DNA of 64,000 nt, from contig PNAS01000027.1 of assembly GCA_003169695.1 (NCBI GenBank), positions 40,488 to 104,487 on the forward strand. Direction: 5' to 3'. The first letter of the stretch is position 1; the number at the start of each line of letters is the position of its first letter. The stretch comes from Spartobacteria bacterium. Lineage in GTDB: Bacteria > Verrucomicrobiota > Verrucomicrobiia > Chthoniobacterales > UBA10450. Both the position numbers and the translations under genes were made by a program. A model generated the notes under the pieces. It searched no databases and was not told the DNA's origin. It was given only the letters and a program-made list of their open reading frames with translations. Shown piece after piece: positions 5,579 through 51,427 of the stretch.

Positions 5579-5786
5579 GTCACGACGCGCTTGGGGAGCG
5601 CGGGCCTCCAGCCCGTTCCCGCCGACATCCTGCCGGCGGGCTGTGCTAACGCGATAATTGGTTCGCCCTGCGAAAAGGCAGGGCGTGCCAGCGAAATTCC
5701 GATGCCCGGCAGAATGCCCCGCCCTGCGGGATGGAAGCCCGCGGTCCCCATCCGCTCATCTACGTGTTGCGACAAATGGAATGCGA

Positions 5787-8084: not shown

Positions 8085-9171
8085 GATTGGGTTGCGTATA
8101 TCTTTCCATCGTTTCCACGACGAGGGCGGCTGCGTTTTTTGGCGCCAGCCGCGCGGAATTCTCCGACATGCGAAGCAGTTTGCTCGGGTCGCCGGTTAAC
8201 TCCCGGATTTTCCGTGCGAGCAGATCACCCGCGAGATCGGACTCCTTCAAAATGACGCCGGCATCGGCGCGGACGAAAATCTCGGCGTTTCGCGTTTGGT
8301 GGTCCTCCGCCGCGTAGGGAAAAGGAATCAAGATCGCGGGCAGTGAAAAGGCAGCGAGCTCCGCGAGACTGGCCGCGCCCGAGCGGGCGATCGCGAAATC
8401 CGCGGCGCTATAAACTTCCTCCATAGCGTGATGAAAGGCCGCGACATGGGCCGGGATTTTTTCGCGCTGATAATTGTCGGCGACCAGCCGTTCATCGCGC
8501 GCTCCGGAAAGGTGGATCACCTGGATGGGCGCGCCTTGCAGCTCCGGCAGCGATTTGATCATCGCCTGATTGATGCCGCTCGCGCCCTGGCTTCCGCCCA
8601 TTACCAGGAGCGTAAGCAGATCTTCCCGCAGACCCAGCCGTTGCCTCGCGATCTTTCGATCAAGGCGCTGGAGATCCTTACGGATCGGTGTGCCGGTCAC
8701 CTCCGTGCGCACTTTTGGAAAAAAAGGAGCGCATTCTTTAAACCCAAGCAGAACCGCGCGCACCATTCGTCCAGTGAGCCGGTTCGCCTTTCCGGGAATC
8801 GCATTGGATTCGTGAATGAAAGTCGGAATGCCGCGCATCTTTCCCGCGAGCACCGGCGCAGTGGAGGTGAAACCACCCATCCCGAGGACGACGTGTGGCT
8901 TGAATTTCCGATAGATGCCACGGCAAAGCGAAAGACTTTCGTTGAAGCGGCGCAGGAACCCGAGAATCGCGGGTGAAAAAGGTGAAGGAAGACCAATCGT
9001 TGGCAGTTTATGGAATCGAAAATCGGACCGACCGGAGAGCGCAAGTGCGTCGATCTCCTTTTCGGAAATGAAGATCATCACCTCGTGACCGCGGGCGCGC
9101 AGAACTTCCGCCACCGCGAGACCAGGAAATAGATGTCCGCCCGTTCCTCCGCATGCGATCACGGTGTTCAT
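8068..9171 (-). CDS. murG: Lipid II synthase MurG (GT28)
   Basis: ACGGTGGHLFPGLAVAE N-terminal G-loop. dcw position between ftsW and murC. Confidence 0.93.
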   Translation of the reverse strand: MNTVIACGGTGGHLFPGLAVAEVLRARGHEVMIFISEKEIDALALSGRSDFRFHKLPTIGLPSPFSPAILGFLRRFNESLSLCRGIYRKFKPHVVLGMGGFTSTAPVLAGKMRGIPTFIHESNAIPGKANRLTGRMVRAVLLGFKECAPFFPKVRTEVTGTPIRKDLQRLDRKIARQRLGLREDLLTLLVMGGSQGASGINQAMIKSLPELQGAPIQVIHLSGARDERLVADNYQREKIPAHVAAFHHAMEEVYSAADFAIARSGAASLAELAAFSLPAILIPFPYAAEDHQTRNAEIFVRADAGVILKESDLAGDLLARKIRELTGDPSKLLRMSENSARLAPKNAAALVVETMERYTQPNHDAHL

Positions 9172-9218
9172 AGCGAGATTGCAGATTGGAAAATGGGGGA
9201 TGCAGGTATCTGTCCCAG

Positions 9219-9246
9219 TCTGAAATCTGAAATCTGAAATCTGAAA
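9219..9246. repeat. Heptanucleotide microsatellite (TCTGAAA)x4
   Basis: Four perfect tandem 7-mers in the 79-nt ftsW-murG spacer. Confidence 0.9.
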
Positions 9247-9250
9247 TGAC

Positions 9251-10393
9251 TCATATTCTGGGCGTCGTTCGCGCCTGGATCATCGTCCGTTTCCGATTCG
9301 CCGGCTCGAGTACTCCTTGACGATAAATGTTCAGCAGCAATCCAATTCCAAAAAGGCACGCGGCAAGATTCGATCCTCCGTAGCTCACAAACGGGAGCGG
9401 CAAGCCTTTATTGGGCAGGAGCGATGTCGTGACACCGATGTTGACCGCCGCTTGCAGTCCGAGAAGCGAGACGATCCCGCAGCCGAGAAGCAACCCGACG
9501 CGATCCTTCGCATGCAGCGCGATCATCATCCCGCACACAATGATTACAACAAAGAGGAACACGACGACCAAACTCACCCGCAAACCAAGTTCCTCGCCGA
9601 TCATCGGGAAGATGAAATCGGTGTGCGCATATGGGAGGTAAAGCATTTTCTGCCGGCCGTTCCCGAGGCCGAGACCTTCCATTCCGCCACTTCCCCACGC
9701 GATCAGAGCCTGCATTTGCTGCAAGCCGGCGTCGTCTTTGAAGCGTTCGGGATCCATAAACGCCGAGAGCCGGGCCATACGTTCCGACATGTGCGTCGCG
9801 ACGAAGAGAATGCCGGCCAGGCCACCTAACGAGAGCAGGCCGAGGAGCACCGGGTTGGTTCCCGCGACGAACATGATCACGAACATCGTTGCGCCGATTA
9901 GCGCGGTCGTTCCGAGATCGACTTCCGTCACGATTAGCAGCAAGAGTGTGACGACGATGGCGAATGGAATCATGAAACCCTGCAGGATACGGCCCGCTCC
10001 CTTTTCATAACGGGCGAACCACCAGGCGAGAAAAAAGACGACGGCGATCTTCGCGATTTCCGACGGCTGAAATGTAACCGGACCGAGTCCGATCCAACGG
10101 CGCGAACCGTTGATGCGCATTCCGAGGTGCGGCACGAAACAAAGCAAGAGAGCGATGAGGGCCAGTCCAAACCAGATCCACCACGTCCGCTGCCAGAAAT
10201 GGTAGTCGACCAGCGCTGCCACGGTGCACCCAATGAGACCGACGCCGAGCCAGACCACCTGTCTCTTCACGAAAAAATAGACGTCACCGTGACTGTCGCG
10301 CGCGAACGCACTCGTGCTGAAAAGCATAACGATGCCGATGACCAGCATGCCGAGAACTGCCAGGAACAAAAAGTAGGCGCTCTTGCGATGCAT
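9251..10393 (-). CDS. ftsW: SEDS-family lipid II polymerase/flippase FtsW
   Basis: About 10 TM segments, FtsW/RodA/SpoVE motifs (LLPNKGLPLPFVSYGGS) and dcw position. Confidence 0.93.
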   Translation of the reverse strand: MHRKSAYFLFLAVLGMLVIGIVMLFSTSAFARDSHGDVYFFVKRQVVWLGVGLIGCTVAALVDYHFWQRTWWIWFGLALIALLLCFVPHLGMRINGSRRWIGLGPVTFQPSEIAKIAVVFFLAWWFARYEKGAGRILQGFMIPFAIVVTLLLLIVTEVDLGTTALIGATMFVIMFVAGTNPVLLGLLSLGGLAGILFVATHMSERMARLSAFMDPERFKDDAGLQQMQALIAWGSGGMEGLGLGNGRQKMLYLPYAHTDFIFPMIGEELGLRVSLVVVFLFVVIIVCGMMIALHAKDRVGLLLGCGIVSLLGLQAAVNIGVTTSLLPNKGLPLPFVSYGGSNLAACLFGIGLLLNIYRQGVLEPANRKRTMIQARTTPRI

Positions 10394-19556: not shown

Positions 19557-20012
19557 CTACAGTCCGATCACATTCGCGACGTGTTGGTAGGTCGGCGTTT
19601 CGTCCTCGTGAGCGCGTTTCCATTTCTGTAGATTCCAAATTTCAAAACGGCCGCGCCCGCCGACGAGTGCGACCTCGCCCTTCAAGCCCAGCTCCTTGCA
19701 CATATCCTCAGGCAAGACCAGACGCCCCTGGCGGTCGGATGCACCGTGTTCCGCGCGCGAATGCAATTGGCGTGAGAAAATCCGGCGGTCGCGCGCCGAG
19801 ATCGTGCTGTCTGACTCGGCCCGCGCGCTCATGCGGGCGAACTCCTCCGCTGACATGACAAGGAGATACTGGTGGCTCGGTTCGGGCAGAATGATGAAAT
19901 CTTCGCCGTCGCTTTGGCGCCAGCGGGAAGGGACGGTGATGCGGTTTTTTTCGTCAATCGAATGACGAAACTCGCCGGCGAAGAATTTTTGGGGTTGAGA
20001 GTCGGAGTCCAT
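19557..20012 (-). CDS. mraZ: Transcriptional regulator MraZ
   Basis: Two SpoVT/AbrB-like MraZ repeats (DEKNRITVPSRWR and DRQGRLVLPEDM). First gene of the dcw cluster. Confidence 0.93.
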   Translation of the reverse strand: MDSDSQPQKFFAGEFRHSIDEKNRITVPSRWRQSDGEDFIILPEPSHQYLLVMSAEEFARMSARAESDSTISARDRRIFSRQLHSRAEHGASDRQGRLVLPEDMCKELGLKGEVALVGGRGRFEIWNLQKWKRAHEDETPTYQHVANVIGL

Positions 20013-24757: not shown

Positions 24758-24837
24758 GGATGGCGCGCTGCGGCGTCCGCTCGAGTCAGTCTCGTGATCT
24801 TACACCGCGGCCGGCGCAACGCGCCGTCCCTGCCTAC
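24754..24837. repeat. REP/REPIN-like inverted pair of GTAG-headed palindromes
   Basis: GTAGGGATGGCGCGCTGCGGCGTCC (24754-24778, +) and GTAGGCAGGGACGGCGCGTTGCGCC (24837-24813, -). The two GTAG heads contain the TAG stops of fabF and mglB. Confidence 0.5.
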
Positions 24838-25301
24838 TGGTCGGCAAAGACCGGGGTGGCGGTAATGTCCGAAGCGTCGAAGGAAAATCCGTGGCCGGTA
24901 TTCTGCAGCGACTTTAGAAGTGCGGCGACACTTTGTGCCGTGCTCGCGGAATAGAATCGCACCAAACCAACCGTCGTCCGGCGTCCGAAAACGGTAATCA
25001 TGATCGTATCGTCGTCGACCGAATTCATGAAAATATGATTCCCGTTACCCTGGTGATAAAGCGCATTGAATTCCACTTCGCCGATGCGCCGCGCGAGTTC
25101 CTTCGTGGCGGCGAATGAACCCGCCGCCAGCGCCGCAATGATCGTAACGTCCATCGCGGTCATGTCGCCGAATTGCGAGATCACATTTCCACCGCGATCG
25201 ATCACGACGGTCAGCTCCGCTTCGGCCTTTGTCAGAAAATTACCGAGGACACCGTCGAGATTCGCGACGTCTTCGATCGTCAGGCAAGGGATCGCGTTCA
25301 T
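24834..25301 (-). CDS. mglB: Roadblock/LC7-domain protein, MglB-like GTPase-activating protein
   Basis: 155 aa with a Roadblock/LC7 pattern (VVIDRGGNVISQFGD...ALAAGSFAATKELA...HIFMNSVDDDTIMITVF). Its ATG overlaps the mglA stop (ATGA). Confidence 0.8.
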   Translation of the reverse strand: MNAIPCLTIEDVANLDGVLGNFLTKAEAELTVVIDRGGNVISQFGDMTAMDVTIIAALAAGSFAATKELARRIGEVEFNALYHQGNGNHIFMNSVDDDTIMITVFGRRTTVGLVRFYSASTAQSVAALLKSLQNTGHGFSFDASDITATPVFADQ

Positions 25302-25969
25302 ACCGCAGCGCTCTGTTTCTGTGTGACCGGGGGTTCAACGGGAATCGCGACGGGCGCAGGCGTCGTCTTCGGCACATCGCTTTGCTTGCTGAATTTGTGC
25401 AGCAGAATCTGTGAGACCGCGTTGAGTGACGCGAAAACATTCTGTCCGGTGCTGGAGATGACTTCGAAACTCTGCACGCGCCTCTTCCGGTTGTTCAGGA
25501 CGTACTCGAGATAATTGACCGGGGCGATGTTTTCGAGGTCGCGTTTGTTGTATTGCAGGACGTACGGAATCTCGTCGATTGAGATGTTCTGTTTCGCGAG
25601 ATTGTCTTCGAGGTTCTTAAAGCTCTCGACGTTCTCCTCCATTTTTTCCCATTGCGAATCGGCGACAAAAATGACGCCATCCACGCTGCGCAAAACGAGC
25701 TGCCGCGTCGCGTTGTAAATCACCTGTCCCGGCACAGTGTAGAGCTGAAACTTCGTGACGAACCCTTTGATCACGACCGCGTTCAGCGGCAGGAAATCGA
25801 AGAATAAAGTGCGATCCGACGCGGTGGCGAGCGAGACAAGGTCACCGCGATTCTCGGGATTAATCCGCTGATGGATATAACCCAGGTTCGTCGTCTTCCC
25901 GCACAGCGCCGGACCGTAGTAGACGATTTTAAACTGAATCTCGCGGCTCGCGTAATTGATGATCGACAT
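25298..25969 (-). CDS. mglA: Ras-like small GTPase MglA
   Basis: Long stretches match Myxococcus MglA as I recall it: SIINYASREIQFKIVYYGPALCGKTTNL, DRTLFFDFLP, LYTVPGQV, VFVADSQ and IPYVLQYNKRDL. ATG 25969 is preceded by AGGAGG. The longer ORF (to 26215) overlaps the upstream gene. There is an extra P/V-rich C-terminal tail. Confidence 0.92.
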   Translation of the reverse strand: MSIINYASREIQFKIVYYGPALCGKTTNLGYIHQRINPENRGDLVSLATASDRTLFFDFLPLNAVVIKGFVTKFQLYTVPGQVIYNATRQLVLRSVDGVIFVADSQWEKMEENVESFKNLEDNLAKQNISIDEIPYVLQYNKRDLENIAPVNYLEYVLNNRKRRVQSFEVISSTGQNVFASLNAVSQILLHKFSKQSDVPKTTPAPVAIPVEPPVTQKQSAAV

Positions 25970-25980
25970 ACAAAATCCTC

Positions 25981-27927
25981 CTAGACCGGATGCGAATATT
26001 TTCGTGAAACCTCGTGCACGACGCGCGCGAGCTTCTCTCGTACCTCCGACGCCAGCTCGCCGCTCGCATGGAACGCGGCGAGGCATAGATTCTCGTGCAT
26101 AAAAAATGTGACGGCGCCTTTCACACAGGAAAGCGTCATGCCTCGGAGCGCGCCGAGTTTGGTTTCGACCATGTGGTTCTCGATGCGCTGCATCAGTGAA
26201 GGCGCCATGGCGCAAAGCCCCTCCGTCTCATATTCGGCCGGCAAACTCCCTGCGAGACTAAGACCGTCGCTAAACATGAGCGCGCAGGCCTTCACTCCGG
26301 CGAGTTTGTTAACGTGTGCGACCACACCCTTAGCATCCAGCTTCTCATCGGTCTCAAGCGCGACTTGCAATGAGTTCCGAGGCAGCAGATCGAACGGGTT
26401 TCTCACTGGCACCGCGGCGGCTTGCGCTTCCTCCACCGCTGCGACCGGCGTTGCGACCGGCGTTGCGACCGGCGTTACAATCGGTTTCGCAACTGCTGTC
26501 CCGGCTATATTGAAACGTTTCGCGTCTTCTTCTGCTTTCGCGGAAAACGGCGTGGCAAAATTTGCTCCTGCGTCCTGTTCTTCCTGGTCTTCGCGCATGC
26601 GCAAGGAAGCCGTGGGTAGGCTCTTCAGGACTTCGTGCAGCGGCAGCATGACATCCGCAGCCTCGCCGTCCTTGAAGAGGCTTCGATATTCCGGCGGCAG
26701 TCCCGCTGCAAAAACCTCCGGCGTCACGGTGATTCGTCCGGCCGCGAGCTGTGGTTCGATCAGGGAAAACGGCAGTTCGATTTGCGCTTCGGCTGGAAGA
26801 CTGCCGGAGTCGCCGCTCAATTGAAATGGCGGAAGCGCCTGCAAGATCGGCTTGAGCGCGAGAGTGATCTTCACTTCGGCCTTGCTCTCCGTCGCCGGGG
26901 CAACCGCTGTCTCGGCCGAAGCCGCCAGGCTTTCCGCGGTCAACCACGGTTCATGTTTGGGCCGCAGGTCGTCCGAAGGAGCCGTCATCTTGAACGGAAT
27001 CCGCGTGGGCGCCGGCGCGGATGGGAAACTAGTCGGAACGGACGGCCCGCTTGAGGCTGGAACACTCTCAGGTGCGGGGCCGCCCGTTCCATTCGGTGAA
27101 AGTTTGAAGGGGATGCGCGTGGGCATGGCCGACATGTTTTCGCTCCTCGGATGCTGCATGAACCCGTTCCCGGCGGCCTCTGGCTCGGCGGCGGCAAACG
27201 CTTCCGCCGTGGGCGGCTCGACCCGCACCGGCGGCAGATCGGCAGTCTCGACCGCCTCGGTTGTCGTGCCGAAACGGGAGTTGTCCTCGAGTGTGACCCT
27301 TAAGAACGGCGTCTCGACTTGAGGAACGGCCTGGTGGCGCTCCTGATTGCTGCGGACTTGCAAGCTCGTGAATTGCTCGAGCACCTTCTTGAAAGGAAGC
27401 TGCACTTGCGCCTCATCGGTCGGGGCGATTGAGCGCAGAAAAATTTCCGGCACCTGCTGGTAAATAGTGGCAAGCGAAACGGCCGGTTTCCCACTCGCCA
27501 TTCCTCTTTCAACCTCGGATGCCTTCAAGAGAATCCGGCGGGTCCCGTCGATGCTTTCAATCGGCTTGATGTAATCAGCGGGCATTTGCGCCACGAGGTC
27601 TGCGAGCTCGAGCGAGATCACGCGTTCAACCCTCGGTTCGAGCGCCAATGCGACGGCCGGCGGCAAATCGCGTGGGCGGACGGGCGCAAGTACGCTTGCG
27701 TTCGACATCTGACCGCCCACGACCGGCGAACGCGCCGCCATCTCAAATGGATCCTGGGGTGGCAACACCCGCGTCGCGTTCGGCATCACCGTCTTGCTGA
27801 AGCGTTCGCTGCTTGGCTTCTCGAGCGGCGCCAACGGCTTCGGTGCGGCGACGGATCGCTCTTTCGTAGCCAGGGCCTGGTCCTTGACCTTCTTGAAAAA
27901 GCTTAGGAATGGAATCGTCATGGTCAT
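25981..27927 (-). CDS. 648-aa protein: two ~85-aa internal repeats, P/A-rich linkers and a C-terminal Roadblock/LC7-like domain
   Basis: The ATG directly abuts the pilB stop. The C-terminal ~115 aa (GVVAHVNKLAGVKACALMFSDGLSLAGSLP...GAVTFFMHENLCLAAF) resembles Roadblock/LC7. No confident family assignment for the N-terminal part. Confidence 0.75.
   Translation of the reverse strand: MTMTIPFLSFFKKVKDQALATKERSVAAPKPLAPLEKPSSERFSKTVMPNATRVLPPQDPFEMAARSPVVGGQMSNASVLAPVRPRDLPPAVALALEPRVERVISLELADLVAQMPADYIKPIESIDGTRRILLKASEVERGMASGKPAVSLATIYQQVPEIFLRSIAPTDEAQVQLPFKKVLEQFTSLQVRSNQERHQAVPQVETPFLRVTLEDNSRFGTTTEAVETADLPPVRVEPPTAEAFAAAEPEAAGNGFMQHPRSENMSAMPTRIPFKLSPNGTGGPAPESVPASSGPSVPTSFPSAPAPTRIPFKMTAPSDDLRPKHEPWLTAESLAASAETAVAPATESKAEVKITLALKPILQALPPFQLSGDSGSLPAEAQIELPFSLIEPQLAAGRITVTPEVFAAGLPPEYRSLFKDGEAADVMLPLHEVLKSLPTASLRMREDQEEQDAGANFATPFSAKAEEDAKRFNIAGTAVAKPIVTPVATPVATPVAAVEEAQAAAVPVRNPFDLLPRNSLQVALETDEKLDAKGVVAHVNKLAGVKACALMFSDGLSLAGSLPAEYETEGLCAMAPSLMQRIENHMVETKLGALRGMTLSCVKGAVTFFMHENLCLAAFHASGELASEVREKLARVVHEVSRKYSHPV
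26441..26476. repeat. 12-nt tandem repeat (GCGACCGGCGTT)x3 inside a CDS
   Basis: Three perfect in-frame copies encoding (TPVA)3 in the linker of the 648-aa protein. Confidence 0.9.
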
Positions 27928-29661
27928 TTAATGGTCCTCTCCCGTGACGCGCCAGATTTCCTCGAGCGTCGTGACCCCCTCGAGCGCTTTGTCGAGTCCG
28001 ACCATACGCAGAGTTCTCATCCCCTCCGCCATTGCTTGATTTTTCACGACCGCGGAAGAGGCGCGCTTGATGATGAGGCGGCGGATTGACTCGCTCACGG
28101 GCAGCGCTTCGATAATCGCCACGCGGCCGAGATACCCGCGGCCCTTGCATCGTTCGCAACCGCTTCCGTGATAGAAAACAGCGCCCTCCGGCGCCTTCAT
28201 CGAAAGGCGTTCGAAGATTTCCGGCTCCGGCACAAACTCCTCGCGGCAGTTCGTGCAAATTCGCCTAACGAGTCGTTGCGCGCAAGCCATGATGACCGAG
28301 CTGGAAATTAGGAACGGCTCGATCCCCATATCGTCAAGACGCGTGATCGCACCAGCCGCGTCGTTCGTGTGGAGCGTGCTCAAGACCTGGTGACCGGTCA
28401 GCGCCGCTTTCACGGCAATGTCGGCTGTTTCGTTGTCACGAATCTCACCCACCATCACGATGTCCGGATCCTGCCGGAGGATGGAACGGAGCGCCGAAGC
28501 GAAATCGAGACCGATGTCGTTGCGCACCGAGACCTGATTGATGCCCGTGAGCTCGTACTCGATTGGGTCTTCGACCGTTACGATGTTGTATTGCGGGTTG
28601 TTCAGCTCCTGTAGCACGGAGTAGAGCGTCGTCGTTTTGCCGGAACCAGTCGGGCCGGTCACGAGAATCATTCCGTGCGGTGCGTCGATCGCCTTCTTGA
28701 ATTTGTCGAGCGTACCCTGGTCCATGCCCATCTGGTCGATGCTGCCGGTGAGCGCCGCTTTATCGAGAATACGGATGACGATCTTCTCGCCGTACGCGGT
28801 CGGCAAAATCGAGACACGCAAATCCACTTCCTTGCCGATCACCTTGATGCGGAAGCGCCCGTCCTGCGGCACCCGGCGTTCGGCGATATTCAGGCCCGAG
28901 AGAATTTTGATGCGGGATGTGATCGCGAGCTGAAGCGCCTTCGGCGGCGATTCCGCCATGATCAGTTCGCCGTCGATGCGGTAACGCAGCTTTAGCGTGC
29001 GCTGGAACGGTTCAATGTGAATGTCTGACGCCTTTTCCTTCACTGCCTGGACGAGAATCAGGTTGACGATTTTGATCACGGGCGCGTCTTCGCTGTCCGT
29101 CGCGAGCCGATCGAGATCGATCTCCTCGTTCTTCGCCGACTGCACTTCCACCTCGCCCGCATTTGCCACATCTTCTGCGACCTGCTTGAGCACCTGGCTC
29201 ATGTTCGAGGCGCCATGCACCCCCGCGAGCGCGTCGCTGACCGCCTTCTCCGTCGCAATCATCGGAACGATTTCGAGCTGCACACGCCGCTTCACGTCGT
29301 CGACCGCGAGCACATTTGTCGGATCGGCCATCGCCACGAAGAGCTTGCCGTTGAGGCGCGCGATCGGGACGAGCTTGTTCGCTCTTGCCATTTCGCGCGG
29401 CACCAGCGACATCACTTCCTCCGGCACGCGCAACTTCGAGAGATTAATCAGCGGCGTATTGAGGCAACGGCTCATGCTCACCGTCATGTCCTGGTCTGTC
29501 ACGAACTGGCGGTCCGTCAGAATCTTGAGCAGCCGACCACCTTCCTTCTGCTGAATGCCGACCGCTTCCTCGAGCTGGTTCGGCAGAAGAAGACCGTCCT
29601 CGATAAGGACATCAGCGATGCGTTCGGCGAAGGATTTGCTTCTCATCGTCGTCGCGCGCAT
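27928..29661 (-). CDS. pilB: PilB/GspE-family type IV pilus / type II secretion assembly ATPase
   Basis: N-terminal T2SSE_N-type domain, Walker A GPTGSGKTTT, Asp and His boxes, and a tetra-Cys cluster CTNC...CERC. ATG 29661 overlaps the upstream stop (TAATG). The longer ORF runs to 29733. Confidence 0.92.
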   Translation of the reverse strand: MRATTMRSKSFAERIADVLIEDGLLLPNQLEEAVGIQQKEGGRLLKILTDRQFVTDQDMTVSMSRCLNTPLINLSKLRVPEEVMSLVPREMARANKLVPIARLNGKLFVAMADPTNVLAVDDVKRRVQLEIVPMIATEKAVSDALAGVHGASNMSQVLKQVAEDVANAGEVEVQSAKNEEIDLDRLATDSEDAPVIKIVNLILVQAVKEKASDIHIEPFQRTLKLRYRIDGELIMAESPPKALQLAITSRIKILSGLNIAERRVPQDGRFRIKVIGKEVDLRVSILPTAYGEKIVIRILDKAALTGSIDQMGMDQGTLDKFKKAIDAPHGMILVTGPTGSGKTTTLYSVLQELNNPQYNIVTVEDPIEYELTGINQVSVRNDIGLDFASALRSILRQDPDIVMVGEIRDNETADIAVKAALTGHQVLSTLHTNDAAGAITRLDDMGIEPFLISSSVIMACAQRLVRRICTNCREEFVPEPEIFERLSMKAPEGAVFYHGSGCERCKGRGYLGRVAIIEALPVSESIRRLIIKRASSAVVKNQAMAEGMRTLRMVGLDKALEGVTTLEEIWRVTGEDH

Positions 29662-30557
29662 TAGACCCGGCTTTCCAACCGGTAGATGTCCTGCAGAGCT
29701 TTGATGATCGCGTCCGGCCGCGCGAGATACCACGTCACGGTGTAATCGAGCGATTGCTGCACCGCTTCACGGCCGGCCGCGTCGAACGGGTTACAGCACG
29801 CCACCATGATCGTGCGGCTAATCAAATCGAACGGCACATAGAGGCGGCCGAGCGTTAAATGGTCCGGCAACATCCGCGCGATCTGCCGGTCGATGTCGTA
29901 ATACTCGAGCGGCACGTAGGCAAACTTTGTCCGGTCGATCAAGCCGGAGAGCGACTGGTCCACCTTATCGACGTCTTGCCGGCAAAGTTTGTCCAGAAGC
30001 GATGCTGCGAGCGATTGCCCGCTCAAATCCTTGTTCAGATGCTTGACCGTTTCGACAGCCTTGGTCACCTGGTCCTCGGTAAAGAGTTGCTGCATCACCA
30101 AAAATTTGGCGAGATGCTCGTCCCCGCGATCTTGCGAATGCTGTGCGTTCTTCCCGTGCTGGAGGTCCACGAGACCACCCTCGTGCGCCCCATTCGTGCT
30201 TGCCGGCGCGATCAACCCATTTTTCGAGCCGGTCGTCGCGATTGCATGACCGGCCGCTTGCAAGCGCGTTTCGATATCGCCGAGCATCGCGAGAATCTCC
30301 GGCGCGTTGGGTTCCTTGAGCAAAATGACCTCGCACTCCTGGATCGCGAGGGTGTAGGAACCGACGTTAAAATAGGCTTCGGCCAGACGGCGCGAAGTCT
30401 TGAGCGATTCGGCCGCGCGGCCGACCTTTTGATAAGCCTCCTTGAGGATTTCGAGCGACTGATAATCGTCAGGCTGTGTTTGAGTTATGACCTCAAACAT
30501 CTCGATCGTCTGAACGATCTGACTATGCTCCTCCTCGGATAACGTGTGTTCCAGCAC
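29661..30557 (-). CDS. TPR-repeat protein with C-terminal GspE/PilB N-terminal-like (T2SSE_N) domain
   Basis: TPR-like helices in the first ~100 aa. The C-terminal ~140 aa show the pattern FAYVPLEYYDIDRQIARMLPDHLTLGRLYVPFDLISRTIMVACCNPFD...ALQDIY, typical of T2SSE_N domains. GTG start. Confidence 0.7.
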   Translation of the reverse strand: MLEHTLSEEEHSQIVQTIEMFEVITQTQPDDYQSLEILKEAYQKVGRAAESLKTSRRLAEAYFNVGSYTLAIQECEVILLKEPNAPEILAMLGDIETRLQAAGHAIATTGSKNGLIAPASTNGAHEGGLVDLQHGKNAQHSQDRGDEHLAKFLVMQQLFTEDQVTKAVETVKHLNKDLSGQSLAASLLDKLCRQDVDKVDQSLSGLIDRTKFAYVPLEYYDIDRQIARMLPDHLTLGRLYVPFDLISRTIMVACCNPFDAAGREAVQQSLDYTVTWYLARPDAIIKALQDIYRLESRV

Positions 30558-30845
30558 AACCCCCTCATAAAAGCTAGAAGCGTGCCCCCATCTCTCTGTC
30601 TCGGAAAACCCACGTAAAAAGTTCAGTGCGCTTCCTGCAGCGGCGGCCCGGGACCGTCGAATCTCCCTCTGAACCGCTGAATTGACCGTAGATGGTGGGG
30701 ATGCAGCGGATTGATGATTTTTGAAATCGTTAAATCACTGATTCGCTCAATCGCCAAGTTTCTTTCGAATCTGCCCTATTTTTCGTCTTCCGCTCCCGCC
30801 CGCGATGCGATATTAGTTTGTCGACAACGTTCCGCTGTTAGACTC

Positions 30846-31664
30846 GTGATTCCCCCACCCAATCACAACCTGCACGCTTTCACCTTAATCGAGCTCGTCG
30901 TCGTCATTGCGATCGTCGCCGTCTTGACCGCATTCCTCGTCCCGGCTTTCACCAATCTTAAAGGGGCGAATGACCTCACAAACGCCGCCTATACCATCAA
31001 AGGTGTTCTTGAGCAGGCGCGCACCTACGCGAGAGTAAACAATACCTACGCCTGGGTTGGATTCTACGAAGAGAACGGCTCAATCGCATCAACAAATCTA
31101 CCGACCGCAGGGAACGGCCGGCTTGTGATGTCGAGCGTCGCTTCAACAGATGGAACGACGGTGTACGGTTCGACGCCCGGTGCGATTGATCCAACAAAGC
31201 TGATGCAAGTCGCCAAGTTAGTTAAGATCGATAATTTACATCTTCCGCTCTTGGCAATTGGCACTGGAACGGGAGACACATTTGATACTCGTCCTGCACT
31301 TCAGTTCGAGCCTACCGCAGGTTATAACTACTCGCGGTTTGGAGAGCTTAACGCTGCATCTCCCAATGCTGCGCCATATACTAATTCGCAATATCCGTTT
31401 CAGTATCCGGTAGGAACCCCTGTCCCCACTCCGCAATACACTTTCCTGAAAACGCTCCAGTTTAGTCCGCGAAGCGAGAGCAGAATCAATGGTAACAATT
31501 ATGATGTTCGACGAGTTGTCGAGATTGGGTTGCTTCAGACCCATGGTAACACTGTCCCGGCTGCTACCACCGGTGCGGGCACATCCACAGCCACCTATAA
31601 CGGCAACATCATCGCGATCCAAATCAGCGGGTTCGGCAGTATCGTAAAACTTTACAGGCGATGA
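30846..31664 (+). CDS. Prepilin-type N-terminal cleavage/methylation-domain protein (large pilin/pseudopilin)
   Basis: Class III signal HNLHA|FTLIELVVVIAIVAVLTAFLVP. Start chosen at in-frame GTG 30846, giving an 11-aa leader. The ORF is open from TTG 30711/ATG 30714, which would give an atypically long leader. Confidence 0.75.
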   Translation: MIPPPNHNLHAFTLIELVVVIAIVAVLTAFLVPAFTNLKGANDLTNAAYTIKGVLEQARTYARVNNTYAWVGFYEENGSIASTNLPTAGNGRLVMSSVASTDGTTVYGSTPGAIDPTKLMQVAKLVKIDNLHLPLLAIGTGTGDTFDTRPALQFEPTAGYNYSRFGELNAASPNAAPYTNSQYPFQYPVGTPVPTPQYTFLKTLQFSPRSESRINGNNYDVRRVVEIGLLQTHGNTVPAATTGAGTSTATYNGNIIAIQISGFGSIVKLYRR

Positions 31665-32122
31665 GCCGACGAATTCATTTTTTCGCGGGATTCTCCCTTG
31701 TCGAAGTGACGCTTGCCCTTGGTGTCGCCGCGTTCTGCTTGATCGCCCTGTTCGGATTGCTCCCGCTGGGCGTTCAAACAAACCAAAGCTCGATTTCGCA
31801 AACTGCGGCGGCTTCATTGCTATCGAGCGTCGCCGCAGACCTCCGTGGGACACCTAGAACAAGCCTGACGTCCCCGCAATATGGCATCTCGTTTGGTACC
31901 GCGAAGTTCTTGTACTTCGACGGCCAGGGAAGAGCCGTGACTCCGACAGATCCGAATGCGACTCCCCGCTACCGGGTAACGATTACATTTCCGGCCAGCC
32001 CAGTCGGTACATTTGCGCCGACGTTCGTTAGCCTAAAAATCACTTGGCCTGCGTTGGTTGATCCGGCGACAACAATACCAGCGGGCTTCGTGGAAACGTT
32101 CGCCGCATTTGATCGGCATTGA
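31661..32122 (+). CDS. Prepilin-type minor pilin/pseudopilin
   Basis: MSRRIHFFAG|FSLVEVTLALGVAAFCLIALFGLLP (G-1, E+5). Overlaps the upstream stop. Confidence 0.75.
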   Translation: MSRRIHFFAGFSLVEVTLALGVAAFCLIALFGLLPLGVQTNQSSISQTAAASLLSSVAADLRGTPRTSLTSPQYGISFGTAKFLYFDGQGRAVTPTDPNATPRYRVTITFPASPVGTFAPTFVSLKITWPALVDPATTIPAGFVETFAAFDRH

Positions 32123-32125
32123 GTT

Positions 32126-33007
32126 ATGCGTTCGACGCAACGAGCAAATCCCGCATTCACCCTGGCTGAAATGCTGGTCGCGATAAGTGTGCTAGCGCTT
32201 CTCGTTCTTCTGGTCACGCAGCTACTCAATAACGCCGCTTCCGTTATGACTCTAGGCAACAAGCGAATGGACGCAGGCGCTCAGGCAAGGCCGTTTTTCG
32301 AGCGTATGGCGCTGGATCTTGCCCAAATAGTTAAAAGGAACGACGTCAGCTATTACGTAAAGACTGCTGGAACGCCCATGACTGGCAATGATTTGGTGGG
32401 ATTTTACAGCGCTGTTGAAGGATATTACCCCACAACACCAAGCCCGATTTCCATCGTGGCCTATAGGGTCAATTCCGATTCTTCTAGCTTAGTTGCTTAC
32501 AATTGCTTAGAGCGCATGGGAAAGGGACTGGATTGGAATGGTGCGTCCGCGACTAACATACCAGTTGTCTTTCTTCCGCTCACTATTCACGGCACTTGGC
32601 CCTCAGTGGCAAGCAGTTCCGCGTACGATGACACTGATCCTACCAAAAGGACTTACGAGACAATTGGACCTCAGGTCTTTCGTTTTGAATATTATTATCT
32701 TGAGAAAACAACGGGCAGCCTTGTTGCGTATCCCACCGCTTGGACCTCGTTGTCCGCGGTAGCAATAAAGGATGCCGCCGCAATCGTGGTGGCAATCGCA
32801 GTCGTTGATCCCAAAAGCAAAGTTTTATTGTCCCATTCACAGATGGCGACACTGGTCGAAAGCCTGCCCGATTATGCATCGGGATGGGGCCCCGGCGAGC
32901 TCTTGGCGCGATGGCAATCCGCGCTCGATAGCATTACGAATATGCCACGCCCCGCGATTTCCGGTATCCGTCTTTACGAGCGCTCCTTTTATATTTCCGA
33001 CCAGTGA
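32126..33007 (+). CDS. Prepilin-type minor pilin/pseudopilin (PulJ/PilW-like size)
   Basis: MRSTQRANPA|FTLAEMLVAISVLALLVLLV (A-1, E+5). Confidence 0.7.
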   Translation: MRSTQRANPAFTLAEMLVAISVLALLVLLVTQLLNNAASVMTLGNKRMDAGAQARPFFERMALDLAQIVKRNDVSYYVKTAGTPMTGNDLVGFYSAVEGYYPTTPSPISIVAYRVNSDSSSLVAYNCLERMGKGLDWNGASATNIPVVFLPLTIHGTWPSVASSSAYDDTDPTKRTYETIGPQVFRFEYYYLEKTTGSLVAYPTAWTSLSAVAIKDAAAIVVAIAVVDPKSKVLLSHSQMATLVESLPDYASGWGPGELLARWQSALDSITNMPRPAISGIRLYERSFYISDQ

Positions 33008-35247
33008 CTTGTTCATCTTCGGCCGATCAGGCCTCAAACAAGGGCGTGGCCCTCATCATTGTTCTCGCCTTTGTTGTGCTCCTCAGCGGGCTGATGGTGG
33101 CGTATCTAACCCGCGCCGGGATCGATCGCCAATTGGCCCAATCAAGCTTCCAGGACACAAAATCTGATCTTTTGGCAAGGAGTGCCCTCGATATTGTCGT
33201 CACCGATTTCAAGCAGGAAATTGCCGACCGGGCGATAGTCACGGCGACCAACATTCAGCCGCAACGGTGGGGCACACCCCTTGCCGGCGGAACACCGTTT
33301 CCAAACTTAATTCGGCGCAGTGTTCAAGGAGACCCAACCGGGCGCACGTCAAGTCTCAGCTCTGGGCCGGCGCCGTCCGCAAGCCCAAAGCGCGGCGAAA
33401 TCACATCGACACGTTGGAATAGCCACTTTTTACTTCCGCGCGCCTCTTCGCTAGGAAACGATTCTACGCCAGTCTCCAATTTCGCTGCACCGGATTGGGT
33501 ATTGCTGACGCCGCAGGGGCCGAATTCGGCGCCCGTTCCGAGTTCGGTAATCGGAAGATATGCATACGCGGTTTATGACGAAGGAGGGACGCTTGATGTG
33601 AACGTCGCAGGTTTCCCATATTATACATCATCTTCCCCATGGCCCACACCAGTGCCTACGCCTGGTTTGGCACTTAGCGACATCGGTCGAAAAGGGAGTG
33701 TTGCGTTCGCAGATCTCAGAGCCATACCGACGACCGCAGGCGGCGCTCTACTTAGTGCCGGCGGTATAAACGCCCTCGTCGGATGGAGAAATTATGCCAC
33801 GGTCCATCCTTATTCCACTTTCCCAAACTTCACTTTCGACTTACCAAGCTTCATAGGCGGCACCGGATCCCGTTTTGTAAATTACTTTGCCGGCAATCCT
33901 CAGATCGGTACCAGTCAGGATTTCAGAACGGTCTCGCCGACTGTTTATCTCAATCGAACCGATCAAGCTTTCATCACCAGGACTGAGCTTATCAAGCTTC
34001 AACGGGAAGCCGGCTTTGGTGCGGGTGCGATGCAATACCTCGGAACATTCTCGCGCGAAAAGAACACTCCTACGTGGAAAGCCGGCACGGCGGAGATCGC
34101 TCAGAGGTTTTATGTCGGTAACTTGAATCTAATTAAACCGGATCCATCTACGACTCGGATTGCAGATATCCAGAGGTACTTTGGTCTCAAATGGGTTAAC
34201 GGCACAGCAGGGGCAGTTTCCCCGCCAACCCCCGCAGTCCCCGGTCACTGGCAATACATCGGAGCTTCGGGAAATGCGATGCAAGATCATATTCCCGCTT
34301 TCACGAGCAATCCGGAATTTTTCCAACTCTTAAACCATGCAATGAATCGGACGAATGGTGATGATCCCGTCCACATTTTAACAACCCTCTCGGTCGGAGC
34401 CGCCCTGATTGATCAATATGATGACGACACTGCTGCAGATCCGTTAACAGGGACCACGACCACCATGATAGAATACAACGGCGGCTGGGCTATTGGCCTG
34501 GAAAACATAGATCCCGCCAGGCCCAGCGCATCGCCTTCGCCGACACCATCGCCTTTTCCACCCCCTGCTGGTATGTCCCCCACTCCTCCCCCTGCTATAT
34601 CCACCTACGCGATGCTTAATCGGCCATTTCGCAATGTTGGGGAGTTCGGTTACGCTTTCCGGACGGCGTCAGGTCCAACTCCGACCCCTTCGCCAAACCC
34701 CAAGACACTCGACTTCTATACTGCCACTAGTCCAGACGCTCCCATACTTGACCTGTTTACCTACAACAGCGCACCTATTCGATCCGGCATCGTCAATTTG
34801 AATACACAAGACGTTCCCGTTATTACCGCACTTTTGACCGGAGCTTTTCAGACCGAGCAAAATATCGGGCCATCGCCGAGCGCTTCTCCGGTCGCAAGCC
34901 CCGCCGCGAAAACCGCGGCGACAACTATCGTGAATGCGACCACAACTCAACCCGCACTGAGTCGGGCCGAAATCACGCGTCTGTGCAGCGTCGTCCTTAA
35001 TACACCTTTCACGGCGAGCGAAGAAACAAGGGAAACAATTTCGCGCGCGCTCGCCGAGGTCACACAGACACGTACTTGGGGGCTACTAATTGACTTGATC
35101 ACCCAGACGGGACGGTACCCTCGAGGAACTACGGACCTCACGCAGCAATTCGTCGTTGAAGGAGAAAAACGCTATTGGTTGCATATTGCGATCGATCGCT
35201 TCACCGGCGAGATAATCGATCAGCAGCTCGAGGCCGTTTCCGAATAG
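33004..35247 (+). CDS. Very large GspK/PilX-like minor pseudopilin-like protein (747 aa)
   Basis: N-terminal hydrophobic segment KGVALIIVLAFVVLLSGLMVAYL without E+5, as in GspK/PilX. Several P/S/T-rich linkers. Last gene of the pseudopilin operon. Confidence 0.6.
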   Translation: MTCSSSADQASNKGVALIIVLAFVVLLSGLMVAYLTRAGIDRQLAQSSFQDTKSDLLARSALDIVVTDFKQEIADRAIVTATNIQPQRWGTPLAGGTPFPNLIRRSVQGDPTGRTSSLSSGPAPSASPKRGEITSTRWNSHFLLPRASSLGNDSTPVSNFAAPDWVLLTPQGPNSAPVPSSVIGRYAYAVYDEGGTLDVNVAGFPYYTSSSPWPTPVPTPGLALSDIGRKGSVAFADLRAIPTTAGGALLSAGGINALVGWRNYATVHPYSTFPNFTFDLPSFIGGTGSRFVNYFAGNPQIGTSQDFRTVSPTVYLNRTDQAFITRTELIKLQREAGFGAGAMQYLGTFSREKNTPTWKAGTAEIAQRFYVGNLNLIKPDPSTTRIADIQRYFGLKWVNGTAGAVSPPTPAVPGHWQYIGASGNAMQDHIPAFTSNPEFFQLLNHAMNRTNGDDPVHILTTLSVGAALIDQYDDDTAADPLTGTTTTMIEYNGGWAIGLENIDPARPSASPSPTPSPFPPPAGMSPTPPPAISTYAMLNRPFRNVGEFGYAFRTASGPTPTPSPNPKTLDFYTATSPDAPILDLFTYNSAPIRSGIVNLNTQDVPVITALLTGAFQTEQNIGPSPSASPVASPAAKTAATTIVNATTTQPALSRAEITRLCSVVLNTPFTASEETRETISRALAEVTQTRTWGLLIDLITQTGRYPRGTTDLTQQFVVEGEKRYWLHIAIDRFTGEIIDQQLEAVSE

Positions 35248-38998: not shown

Positions 38999-39889
38999 GT
39001 GGAACAGGAGATTGATTCGTTTATCCGTTTCCTCGCAACGGAGCGCGGTCTCTCGAGTAATTATCAACTCTCCACGCGCCGGTCGCTGACCGAGTTCGCG
39101 GCCTGGTGTTCGAGTGCCAGAAAAATTACGGTCCCCTGGGAGGTGACGCAGCCGCTAATCAGTGAGTACCTTTCGATACGAAAGAAGGGCGGACTCTCGG
39201 CGTCGTCGATCAAACTGGTCGTCGTGGCGTTGAAGATTTTCTTTCGGTTTCTGAGCGGGAAGGGCGCGCTCGAACGCGACCCAACGGAAACGCTTACGCT
39301 GCCACGAATTGAACGTTATCTGCCGGAGACGCTGAACGAGCTTCAAGTCGAATGCCTGATTGAAAGCATCGATACGAAACATCCGCTCGGGTTGCGCGAC
39401 CGCGCGATCGTGGAACTGCTCTACGCGAGCGGGCTGCGAATTTCGGAATTGGCGGATGCACGCCTCGAGAATCTGAATTTCGAAGAGCGCATTCTGCGCG
39501 TGACCGGCAAGGGAAACAAGATGCGCCTGGTGCCGGTGGGAAGGAAAGCGTGTCATGCACTCACCTCCTATATCACGACGGAACGCCCGAAGCTGGTGAA
39601 GCGCCGCAGCGGGAGCGAGATTTTTCTGTCGCGCCGCGGGACGAAGCTTACGACTGTTCGCATTTGGCAAATCGTGAAGACGCTCGCGCGGCACTCGGGA
39701 CTGGAGATGAATATTTATCCGCACCTGCTCCGCCATAGTTTCGCGACGCACCTGCTCAGCAATGGCGCGGACCTGCGAATCATCCAGGAACTGCTTGGCC
39801 ACGCCGATATTTCGACGACGCAGGTTTACACGCACGTGGACCAGCAACGGTTGAAAGCCGTGCACCGGAAGTTTCATCCGCGGGCTTGA
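38999..39889 (+). CDS. xerD: Tyrosine recombinase XerD/XerC family
   Basis: N-terminal SAM-like FIRFLATERGLSSNYQLSTRRSL. Catalytic R...HLLRHSFATHLL...LLGH...TTQVYTHV. GTG start. Confidence 0.88.
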   Translation: MEQEIDSFIRFLATERGLSSNYQLSTRRSLTEFAAWCSSARKITVPWEVTQPLISEYLSIRKKGGLSASSIKLVVVALKIFFRFLSGKGALERDPTETLTLPRIERYLPETLNELQVECLIESIDTKHPLGLRDRAIVELLYASGLRISELADARLENLNFEERILRVTGKGNKMRLVPVGRKACHALTSYITTERPKLVKRRSGSEIFLSRRGTKLTTVRIWQIVKTLARHSGLEMNIYPHLLRHSFATHLLSNGADLRIIQELLGHADISTTQVYTHVDQQRLKAVHRKFHPRA

Positions 39890-46058: not shown

Positions 46059-46718
46059 TTATTTCGGCTGTTCGCGAAAGAGATGGTTCGCGTCGGCGAG
46101 TAACTTTGTGACGGCATCCGGCGCCAGCGCGTCGTAGTAGCCGCGGATTGTGCCGTGCCGATCGACCAACACGACGCGAGTGCTGTGGACCGGCATCCCT
46201 GTTTCGTCACTGCCTTCCGAAACGGCGAGCTTAAATCCGTCGCGCGTTAGCGCATAGATTGCGGGGCGCGAGCCAGTCAGAAAATCCCAACGCTTTGGCT
46301 GGGCGTGCAACTTTTCCGCGTAAACGCGCAACACTTCCGGTGTATCTTTTTCCGGATCGACAGTGAAGGAAACGAGATGAATGTCGGTCTTTTCAAGCGG
46401 CTTCTGCAATTCGCTCATCCGGCTGCTGATGATGGGGCATGGACCCGGGCAACTCGTGAAAATGAAATCAGCGATCCAGATTTTTCCAGCCAATTGCGCG
46501 GAACCAAATGGCTCGGCGTCTTGATTAACGAGCTCGAAAGACGGGAGAGCTCCATAGGAGGAGATGGTGCGGTTGGTCAGCTGCTGCACCTGTGCCTGAC
46601 GCAACCAAAGGAGCAGGCCAGCGGTCACGATCGGGATGAGAATCAGAGTCGCCTTCCACGCCGTCGAACTTCTCGGCGTCGGGTGCGTCAGGGGGACGGT
46701 CGCGGTTTCCGATTTCAT
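46059..46718 (-). CDS. SCO1/SenC-family copper chaperone
   Basis: Thioredoxin-fold CxxxC motif FTSCPGPCP, a downstream conserved His and an N-terminal TM. Last gene of the oxidase operon. Confidence 0.88.
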   Translation of the reverse strand: MKSETATVPLTHPTPRSSTAWKATLILIPIVTAGLLLWLRQAQVQQLTNRTISSYGALPSFELVNQDAEPFGSAQLAGKIWIADFIFTSCPGPCPIISSRMSELQKPLEKTDIHLVSFTVDPEKDTPEVLRVYAEKLHAQPKRWDFLTGSRPAIYALTRDGFKLAVSEGSDETGMPVHSTRVVLVDRHGTIRGYYDALAPDAVTKLLADANHLFREQPK

Positions 46719-47632
46719 GATTTGGTCAGGACGAGTGCAATGAGAAGCAAGGGCAGGTAGACGATCGACGCAAGAAAGAGCTTACGCGCATCGGCGGCCA
46801 CTTGTGTGCGCAGAAATCGCATCGCAACGAATATGAACAATCCATTGAGGATCAGCTCAACCAAGAGGTAAATCGAACTGACGACACCGAGGAAAGCGGG
46901 GATCCCGCCGACGAGAAGGAGAACAATGCAAAAGAAAACGCTCTGGCTCGCGCTACGTGTTCCGGTCTCGTCCCCCCTCGACACCATCTGAAATCCAGCC
47001 CGAGCATAATCGTCCCGGTACATCCAGGCGATGGCGAAAAAGTGTGGCAATTGCCAGAAGAAGAGGATGGCGAAAAGACTCCACGCGCCGGGATCCAGTC
47101 GTCCGCGGGCGGCAGCCCAGCCAATCATCGGTGGCAACGCTCCTGGAATTGCACCCACCAGCGTGTTCGCCGTGCTGATGCGTTTCAACGGTGTGTAACC
47201 GAAAATGTAAATGGCTATCGTTAGCGCTGCGAGGACGGCGCTCAGCCCGTTGCATGCGATCGTGAGATACGTTACTCCGGCGATCGCCAGCAGGCTCCCG
47301 ACAATGAACGCATCCCGCGGGAGCATGCGACCGGCGGGAATTGGTCTCGTTCTTGTGCGCTGCATGAGCGCGTCGAGCCGGCGTTCCCACCATTGATTCA
47401 GCGCGGCAGCCCCAGCAGCGGCGAGTGCAGTCCCGCAGACGGCGTGGAAAAGCGCAACGTACTTGATTGAGCCAACCGCACCCAGATAAAAACCGACCGC
47501 AGTGGTGAGTAGAACCAAAAGAGTCAATCGCGCTTTGACGAGTTCCGCGAAATCCGAACCCACGCGCCGGTGCGTTTCACTTTCGATGACTGTTGACTCA
47601 ACATTTACCGGAGGAATCGCGGCAGTTTTCAT
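46715..47632 (-). CDS. ctaB: Protoheme IX farnesyltransferase (heme O synthase)
   Basis: UbiA-family polytopic protein (GAALNQWWERRLDALMQRTRTRP). Overlaps ctaA and sco1 by 4 nt each. Confidence 0.92.
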   Translation of the reverse strand: MKTAAIPPVNVESTVIESETHRRVGSDFAELVKARLTLLVLLTTAVGFYLGAVGSIKYVALFHAVCGTALAAAGAAALNQWWERRLDALMQRTRTRPIPAGRMLPRDAFIVGSLLAIAGVTYLTIACNGLSAVLAALTIAIYIFGYTPLKRISTANTLVGAIPGALPPMIGWAAARGRLDPGAWSLFAILFFWQLPHFFAIAWMYRDDYARAGFQMVSRGDETGTRSASQSVFFCIVLLLVGGIPAFLGVVSSIYLLVELILNGLFIFVAMRFLRTQVAADARKLFLASIVYLPLLLIALVLTKS

Positions 47633-48684: not shown

Positions 48685-48746
48685 CGAGGTTGGTTCGGCC
48701 ACGTAACGCAAAAGTGCAAGAATTCGGTGGTCATAGACCGCCCCTA
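48656..48746. repeat. Perfect 18-bp inverted repeat bracketing the ctaA start
   Basis: TAGGGGCGGTCTATGACC (48656-48673) and its exact reverse complement (48729-48746), with a 55-nt spacer. The outer arm has a GTAG head on the minus strand. Confidence 0.85.
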
Positions 48747-48777
48747 CCGGAAGAAATTCAGGCGCAAGCCGGCAAAC

Positions 48778-49701: not shown

Positions 49702-49954
49702 ATTGATCCAAATCCTCGTTGGTCAATTCTTGATGCGGCTCGAGCGGCGTGTGGGCATGCCGCCAGAGATGGAAACTGAAGGCTCCGACTCCGCCCATGA
49801 CAGACATGACGACCCCCATCAGAACCCAAATCGCGACTGCCATATGCTCGGTGGTCTTGCCATCTTTCGCGCCATAACAAACCGAGCAGGCGAGCATTTG
49901 CCCCATTTGCGAACCGAGAAAGAGCGTAAACGCAACGAGCAACTTCGTTCTCAT
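49694..49954 (-). CDS. Small membrane protein with CSVCYG motif (86 aa)
   Basis: The ATG overlaps the stop of the upstream small ORF (ATGA), and its end overlaps the coxII start by 8 nt. N-terminal hydrophobic segment ending in LACSVCYG, plus a second TM. Confidence 0.55.
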   Translation of the reverse strand: MRTKLLVAFTLFLGSQMGQMLACSVCYGAKDGKTTEHMAVAIWVLMGVVMSVMGGVGAFSFHLWRHAHTPLEPHQELTNEDLDQYD

Positions 49955-50529: not shown

Positions 50530-50532
50530 TGA

Positions 50533-51408: not shown

Positions 51409-51427
51409 GTCGCGGTGTCCTTGGCGA

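Follow-up and report, generated by a model that had tools for sequence, protein, structure and literature searches.

A conserved operon of Chthoniobacterales groups a PilB-type extension ATPase with an MglA-MglB small-GTPase module

Does a small GTPase that shares an operon with a pilus extension motor control that motor? The question is raised by a five-gene set in a 64,000-nucleotide (nt) stretch of Spartobacteria bacterium DNA (the window, contig PNAS01000027.1), in which genes for MglA and MglB, its Roadblock-type GTPase-activating protein (GAP), stand in line with a gene for a PilB-type ATPase. That MglA controls type IV pili is established for Myxococcus and for Bdellovibrio: in M. xanthus it acts with the TPR protein SgmX to bring PilB to the leading pole (PMC11580455), and in Bdellovibrio it binds the TPR protein Bd2492 and is itself required for normal pilus formation (PMC3983030). 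The Myxococcus route from GTPase to PilB is still being worked out and runs via several dispersed proteins (SgmX, FrzS, SopA). The locus described here groups the switch, its GAP, a second Roadblock protein as scaffold candidate, a small adaptor candidate and the motor in one conserved operon.

A first-pass annotation of the window had placed five translationally coupled genes on the minus strand at 24834-30557. All five open reading frames (ORFs) are present at these coordinates, and their content, order and coupling signals were confirmed. In gene order, they are:

29661-30557, minus strand: g1, an adaptor candidate of 298 aa; TPR-like region at the N-terminus, MshEN/T2SSE_N-type domain at the C-terminus
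27928-29661, minus strand: g2, a PilB-type extension ATPase, 577 aa when read from the ATG at 29661; MshEN domain at the N-terminus
25981-27927, minus strand: g3, a 648-aa scaffold candidate, mostly disordered, with a duplicated module and a C-terminal Roadblock domain
25298-25969, minus strand: g4, the small GTPase MglA (223 aa)
24834-25301, minus strand: g5, MglB, the predicted Roadblock-type GAP of MglA (155 aa)

The g2 ATG at 29661 shares a TAATG overlap with the g1 stop codon (an alternative longer start, GTG at 29733, is unneeded), and g3 begins directly after the PilB stop (TAAATG abutment). An 11-nt gap separates g3 from mglA, with a GGAGG overlapping the g3 stop 11 nt before mglA, and mglA and mglB overlap by ATGA. 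We infer from this layout that the five genes are co-transcribed.

The arrangement is conserved outside this genome, both across an order-level clade and in more distant lineages. The nearest genomes to the window are Chthoniobacterales (Verrucomicrobiota) metagenome-assembled genomes, and a survey within the order covered 80 species-representative loci, 55 of which contained all five genes within the fetched flank. The order g1-PilB-g3-MglA-MglB was found in every sufficiently flanked locus; gaps in the 55 five-gene loci were mostly -4 to 13 nt, the 4-nt ATGA overlap of mglA and mglB was present in 55/55, and the few large intergenic gaps fell mostly in assemblies with fragmented matches. Conservation of gene order and tiny gaps across 55/55 species-level genomes indicates that the arrangement is not due to chance. 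Identity to the window within the order was 86-100% for MglA, 82-99% for PilB and 36-86% for g3; given the low g3 identities against an invariant gene order, the order has been kept while the sequence drifted.

Other, more distant lineages, two or three at the least, have the cassette as well. More distant relatives were sought through an MglB search of 50%-identity cluster representatives, followed by the contigs encoding the matches. Loci L084 and L091, whose nearest named glycyl-tRNA synthetase relative is Ca. Auribacterota (70% identity), carry the same five-gene cassette with two PATAN-domain genes directly ahead; identity to the window is 42% for MglB, 68% for MglA, 57% for PilB and 29% for g1. 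Loci L081-L083, from a Methylacidiphilales-like verrucomicrobial lineage, encode g3-like-MglA-MglB without PilB, beside a divergent PATAN-FHA gene and two secretin genes. In L090, a 756-aa HHH_3 protein, whose C-terminus aligns (BLASTP) to the g3 Roadblock region, is followed by MglA-MglB, and in L088 and L089 a 117-aa Roadblock protein ('RDGF', DG motif) is followed by MglA-MglB-PATAN, with PilM-PilN-PilO next in L089. The adjacency of MglB relatives to PATAN, PilMNO or secretin genes counts for pilus control. One candidate for cross-phylum spread, the 3.9-kb 'Phycisphaerae' locus L021 (DATMEE010000155.1, g3-MglA-MglB), was rejected, since its MglA is 95% identical to that of the window and the contig is most likely mis-binned Chthoniobacterales DNA.

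PATAN (PatA_N) proteins recur beside this MglA/MglB subfamily, either on their own or as fusions with receiver, FHA or TPR/beta-propeller domains, at the following positions:

L084, 2227-4541
L091, 7684-9910
L088, 1812-2486
L089, 3299-3949
L081, 6467-7123
L173, 3070-6312

The more distant MglB representatives L172-L174 have short or differing contexts. L173 (JACQFD010000039.1) encodes at 3070-9546 a PATAN-TPR-beta-propeller protein, a TPR protein, a Roadblock protein, a 338-aa protein and MglB, and L172 has, at 2822-4551, two Roadblock genes and a fusion of TPR with Roadblock; neighbourhoods of TPR, Roadblock and GTPase genes seem to recur.

Judged from its sequence, g4 is a canonical group-1 Ras-like MglA. 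A phmmer search aligned it over its full length (residues 1-195) with M. xanthus MglA (5ymx/6h17; E 1.7e-67, ~60% identity), and T. thermophilus MglA (3t12) matched at E 1.4e-60. The P-loop GPALCGKTT fits GxxxxGK(T/S), and the alignment with M. xanthus MglA is free of gaps at D52-R53-T54 and Y77-T78-V79-P80-G81-Q82. These segments hold the intrinsic arginine finger (R53), the Thr78 that replaces the Asp of DxxGQ, and the catalytic Gln82 (roles described in PMC4316618 and PMC3000849). Similarly, g5 matches Pfam Robl_LC7 (E 1.2e-12), and the profile of its orthologues matches M. xanthus MglB (6h5b; E 5.8e-22); its score against the NCBIfam equivalog for Thermus-type MglB stays below cutoff (E 1.5e-16, 60.9 bits vs 200). 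D35 and G38 of g5 are invariant in 23 orthologues and correspond to D36..G39 in M. xanthus; D..G is the signature of coupled MglBs, and an adjacent DG marks the MglC-type ('orphan') clade (McLoon et al., PMC4719450). As g1, g3, MglA and MglB all lack a predicted transmembrane segment, a cytoplasmic complex is plausible.

The ATPase g2 matches Pfam T2SSE (PF00437, E 3e-138) and, N-terminally, MshEN (PF05157, E 3e-18), and its translation shows a Walker A motif (GPTGSGKTT) and a CxxC...CxxC motif. Its partner g1 exceeds the Pfam MshEN cutoff at residues 214-296 (E 6e-10), within a C-terminal MshEN/T2SSE_N-type domain of about residues 149-296; in NCBIfam, residues 149-293 align to positions 2-137 of the PilB model. 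The first-pass annotation had described g1 as carrying a spare copy of the motor's N-terminal domain. Membership of the MshEN family stands, and a close copy of the adjacent PilB N-terminus was not found: BLASTP between the two was not significant, which excludes g1 as a recent duplicate. Orthologues of g1 keep the GTG start and an MLEH N-terminus, the N-terminal region is conserved as far as distant orthologues, and some orthologues carry precomputed TPR_14 (PF13428) matches.

MshEN domains that act as cyclic di-GMP (c-di-GMP) receptors contain two tandem 24-residue motifs, RLGxx(L/V/I)(L/V/I)xxG(L/V/I)(L/V/I)xxxxLxxxLxxQ (Wang et al., PMC5013675). Neither the strict nor a relaxed form was matched in PilB, in g1, or in 59 PilB and 47 g1 orthologues. 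PilB carries one near-motif (RIADVLIEDGLLLPNQLEEAVGIQ, 10/11 key positions), and its second motif appears degenerate on our own reading of the sequence.

What of g3, the largest unfamiliar component? Its Roadblock-like C-terminus, proposed in the first-pass annotation, is borne out by profile matches, database naming and a Pfam-passing orthologue. The protein itself has no Pfam or NCBIfam match, and the full-length AlphaFold2 model has a mean predicted local distance difference test (pLDDT) score of 48, with the Roadblock region not folded confidently. Three parts can be delimited:

27358-27627, minus strand: g3 module copy 1 (residues ~101-190, AlphaFold2 pLDDT 71-80)
26593-26877, minus strand: g3 module copy 2 (residues ~351-445, AlphaFold2 pLDDT 78-88)
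25993-26358, minus strand: g3 C-terminal Roadblock/LC7 domain (residues ~524-645; invariant F552, D554, G555)

A profile of the last 135 residues matches Robl_LC7 proteins in the PDB (E 2.8e-5, 8.3e-5 and 9e-4), including 7yh1, an Asgard archaeal Roadblock protein (PMC10933270); relatives are labelled 'Roadblock/LC7/MglB family' by JGI, and the orthologue in L120 exceeds the Pfam Robl_LC7 cutoff. Within the F-x-D-G signature, F552, D554 and G555 are invariant in 34-36 orthologues, and the MglC counterpart is F25-D26-G27.

The two modules (~100 aa each) are internal duplicates (hhalign probability 97%, E 8.5e-11), and copy 2 modelled alone reaches a pLDDT of ~85. The duplicated module has no Pfam family, and Foldseek searches of the PDB with the full g3 model and with the well-folded module gave no match at E<=0.001. 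By BLASTP, copy 2 matches the g3-like proteins of L081, L084 and L090 in their N-terminal region; the modules are made up of strand-helix units with a repeated 'h-x-L-P-h-x-x-h-L-x-x-h-P' motif. Elsewhere, the conservation profile shows many short conserved motifs within variable Pro/Ala-rich segments. The N-terminus is a conserved hydrophobic-basic peptide (MTIPFLSFFKK), and similar peptides start the outgroup g3-like proteins; its amphipathicity is moderate only and inconsistent among outgroups, so a membrane-targeting helix remains speculation. In four relatives, an HHH_3 (ComEA-like helix-hairpin-helix) domain lies just before the Roadblock domain (L084 7265-9355, L090 417-2687, L091 12667-14676, L120 10778-13012).

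How the operon was put together is indicated by its parts elsewhere. A metagenome scan with the g1 alignment returned 80 loci; in 76/80 a PilB start lies directly downstream of g1, and the remaining four (L142, L162, L163, L168) are on short contigs that end too soon after g1. Only five g1-PilB loci (L092, L109, L120, L136, L153) continue into a 650-870-aa protein and MglA-MglB, and these are further instances of the five-gene cassette. In a neighbour-joining PilB tree (midpoint-rooted, computed with no bootstrap support values), every MglA-linked PilB falls in one clade and the unlinked g1-PilB pairs in the other, and this single clade points to one old linkage that was retained.

The kind of machine that the ATPase serves can be approached through other genes of the window:

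30558-30710: divergent intergenic region, presumed from its position to hold the promoters of the operon and of the pseudopilin cassette
30711-35247, plus strand: set of four minor-(pseudo)pilin genes, GspH/I/J/K-like and akin to Verru_Chthon cassette D, B, C, A
53380-54681, plus strand: PilT/PilU-family retraction ATPase, 23 kb away and not in the operon (TIGR01420 354.1 bits, cutoff 319.1; Pfam T2SSE E 2e-45)

The genes divergent to the operon at 30711-35247, annotated as pseudopilins at first pass, are indeed prepilin-like. They carry N_methyl motifs and match TIGR02596, TIGR02598, TIGR02599 and TIGR02600, above cutoff for protein B only (61.0 vs 51.4); the matches of cassette proteins D, C and A are confined to N-terminal prepilin regions and lie far below cutoffs. 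The last protein of the set (747 aa) matches GspK and cassette protein A at its N-terminus only, and the first pseudopilin gene probably has its true start further downstream. Adjacency of operon and pseudopilin genes is conserved in most Chthoniobacterales loci and absent in the loci outside the order; a literature search on 'Verru_Chthon' found nothing. The PilT/PilU-family gene is followed after 21 nt by a gene for a 235-aa protein with HisKA dimerisation and receiver domains and no HATPase_c match listed (region 53380-55410, plus strand), perhaps a phosphorelay component connected with the retraction motor.

The first-pass annotation had left open a pilus or a secretion motor. A retractile type IVa pilus is favoured by the PilT/PilU-family ATPase in the window, by the PilMNO, secretin and PATAN genes of relatives, and by the type 4 pilus genes reported for Chthoniobacteraceae, which are described as non-flagellated rods (PMC11596606).

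We favour, at a little better than an even chance, a reading in which the locus joins a type IVa extension-motor module (g1 and PilB) to an MglA GTPase module, and MglA-GTP licenses or positions PilB via g1 and/or g3. MglA-GTP would be the ON state: at the base of the pilus, located at a single pole or site of a rod-shaped cell, it would recruit or license PilB, with the TPR-like part of g1, g3 or both as the intermediary. MglB would stimulate GTP hydrolysis and so turn the system off elsewhere. The non-MglB (MglC-type) Roadblock domain of g3 would bind MglB or MglA, and the switch would be anchored by the duplicated module of g3, by its linear motifs and by the hydrophobic-basic peptide at its N-terminus; one chain would thereby do the job that RomR plus MglC do in Myxococcus. 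Each of these protein-protein contacts, and the cellular output, is a prediction that draws on the precedents of SgmX-MglA-PilB in M. xanthus and MglA-Bd2492 in Bdellovibrio.

A number of observations weigh against this reading. At least 3.5 kb of downstream sequence is available for about 20 g1-PilB loci that lack mgl genes (in two unlinked loci examined, the gene after g1-PilB is moeA), and since g1-PilB pairs occur without mgl in most lineages sampled, g1 is not a dedicated MglA effector. The Roadblock-mglA-mglB triad likewise occurs without PilB. Because both exist apart, the five-gene operon is best described as a widespread g1-pilB pair joined to a widespread Roadblock-mglA-mglB triad; the single unit of the first-pass annotation is thus a real cassette, composed of two modules that are separable elsewhere. 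The two PilB clades may just mirror taxonomy. The TPR-like region of g1 (about residues 20-95) gave only sub-cutoff Pfam matches, at residues 35-94 (TPR_19, E 6e-4, 20.5 bits against a cutoff of 25; TPR_14, E 2e-3, 19.2 bits against 23.5). The g3 Roadblock profile gave a null result against the MglB profile (hhalign), and its PDB matches at E<=1 included no MglB or MglC chain; for want of such direct similarity, 'MglC-like' is for g3 a signature-and-context call and not a demonstrated membership. No PilC, PilM/N/O or PilQ gene was found among the window ORFs scanned, and promoter and terminator scans gave no signal above shuffles and no sigma-70 consensus match.

The separability of the modules also speaks for a rival account, in which MglA, MglB and g3 run general polarity or another polar process and share the pilB promoter without touching the motor. 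Both modules occur separately in many lineages, and Myxococcus MglA has several non-pilus outputs. Against such mere co-expression, which we regard as unlikely though a real contender, stand the tight coupling that survives large divergence, the single clade of MglA-linked PilBs, and the recurrence of the same MglB subfamily beside other pilus genes.

A second alternative concerns the machine: g2 could be of GspE type and drive a type II secretion-like pseudopilus that is assembled from the Verru_Chthon minor pseudopilins, with MglA gating secretion. The NCBIfam scores of g2 are close and both just below their equivalog cutoffs (PilB TIGR02538, 645.8 bits against 675.65; GspE TIGR02533, 618.8 bits against 630.25), and the divergent GspH/I/J/K-like genes stay adjacent within the order. 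However, the alignment to the PilB model spans the whole model, N-terminal region included, and the GspE alignment starts only at residue 111; a PilT/PilU-family retraction ATPase is in the window, relatives are linked to PilM/N/O and PATAN proteins, and the cassette adjacency is lost outside the order. Minor pilins of type IVa pili also resemble GspH-K. PATAN response regulators, furthermore, are reported in a preprint to interact with the cyanobacterial type IV pilus motor. We consider a secretion motor improbable, and a competence (DNA-uptake) pilus, in which the g3 family would bind DNA through a ComEA-like helix-hairpin-helix domain, more improbable still. The latter draws on the HHH_3/ComEA-type domains in the orthologues of L084, L090, L091 and L120, but neither g3 of the window nor its Chthoniobacterales orthologues gave an HHH match. 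ComEA acts in the periplasm, and g3 is predicted to be cytoplasmic, as it combines a GTPase-regulator domain with the lack of any signal peptide-like or transmembrane segment.

Beyond control of PilB by MglA-GTP as favoured above, a bolder version, which we hold only tentatively and think unlikely as a whole, would make the cassette a self-contained, ancestral 'GTPase-gated pilus motor'. In it, g3 would represent a new class of single-chain polarity scaffold that replaces RomR/RomX/MglC and is perhaps an exchange factor, and the PilB-like N-domain of g1 would serve as a decoy that controls PilB docking on the pilus platform under MglA-GTP. If this were true, direct control of PilB would be an old function of group-1 MglA, given the single PilB clade, and maybe the original one, later dispersed in Myxococcota.

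How does the locus compare with known systems? Like the Myxococcus polarity module (MglA, MglB, MglC, RomR/RomX), it encodes an MglA of the same group with identical catalytic residues, a homologous MglB and a second Roadblock protein, and the TPR-like g1 would stand between GTPase and PilB as the TPR protein SgmX does. Unlike in Myxococcus, where the genes are dispersed and the operon runs mglB-mglA, mglA here precedes mglB in an operon with pilB; no RomR, RomX, FrzS or Frz genes were seen nearby, and the adaptor candidate, in contrast to SgmX, is a small TPR-like/MshEN protein. MglC is a small, single-domain protein (~120 aa) encoded away from mglA, whereas the second Roadblock domain here is the C-terminus of a 648-aa multi-module protein encoded immediately upstream of mglA. 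Bdellovibrio differs in that MglB is absent and Bd2492 is encoded with tamAB rather than pilB and lacks an MshEN domain.

A group-1 mglA with two coupled mglB-like genes has been reported in seven cases (McLoon et al. 2016, PMC4719450). As in those cases, one MglB-type (D..G) and one MglC-type (DG) Roadblock stand beside group-1 mglA in the window and also in L088 and L089; unlike those cases, for which neither linkage to a pilus motor nor an extended scaffold was described, the MglC-type domain here forms one protein with a long N-terminal region that contains the new, duplicated module. The first-pass annotation was aware of no characterised unit of this kind; the coupling of a second mglB-like gene to mglA was, however, already known from that study. 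Neither an mglA-pilB operon nor the g1 or g3 family turned up in our literature search, and Wuichet and Sogaard-Andersen described MglA groups 1, 4 and 5 as having no conserved neighbourhood save occasional PATAN genes.

Control of an extension ATPase via, or by imitation of, its N-terminal MshEN/GSPII domain has parallels in MshE and other MshEN receptors (PMC5013675) and in FimX-PilZ-PilB. Unlike the MshEN receptors, PilB and g1 lack two intact 24-residue c-di-GMP motifs, and the predicted input is a GTPase and not a nucleotide second messenger. A further likeness, to the cyanobacterial systems of PATAN regulators and pilus motors, lies in the PATAN genes ahead of the L084/L091 cassette and after mglB in L088/L089; in contrast to those systems, the scanned window ORFs yielded no PATAN gene.

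Other genes of the window include a MurC-MurB fusion of 765 aa (5787-8084, minus strand), with a complete MurC-like Mur ligase, FAD_binding_4 and MurB_C, within a long dcw (division and cell wall) cluster that runs from mraZ (19557-20012) to ftsZ (831-2438). Two terminal oxidase gene sets lie at 46715-53314 and 57511-61192 (both minus strand), one aa3-type with CtaA/CtaB assembly genes and the other with COX1-like and FixO-like subunits and cytochrome c. An XerC/D-type tyrosine recombinase gene lies at 38999-39889 (plus strand). Rfam and tRNA scans of the window were empty.

Chthoniobacterales are among the most abundant and least studied soil lineages, and the cassette offers a minimal set of parts with which GTPase control of a pilus motor can be tested. 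Two families not yet characterised emerge from it as well: a TPR-like/MshEN partner of PilB, and the g3 scaffold candidate with a module that lacks a Pfam or PDB match. The distribution of the cassette suggests that the connection between MglA and pili is much older and wider than Myxococcota, and the operon arrangement suggests that the place or the time of pilus formation is under direct control of the switch.

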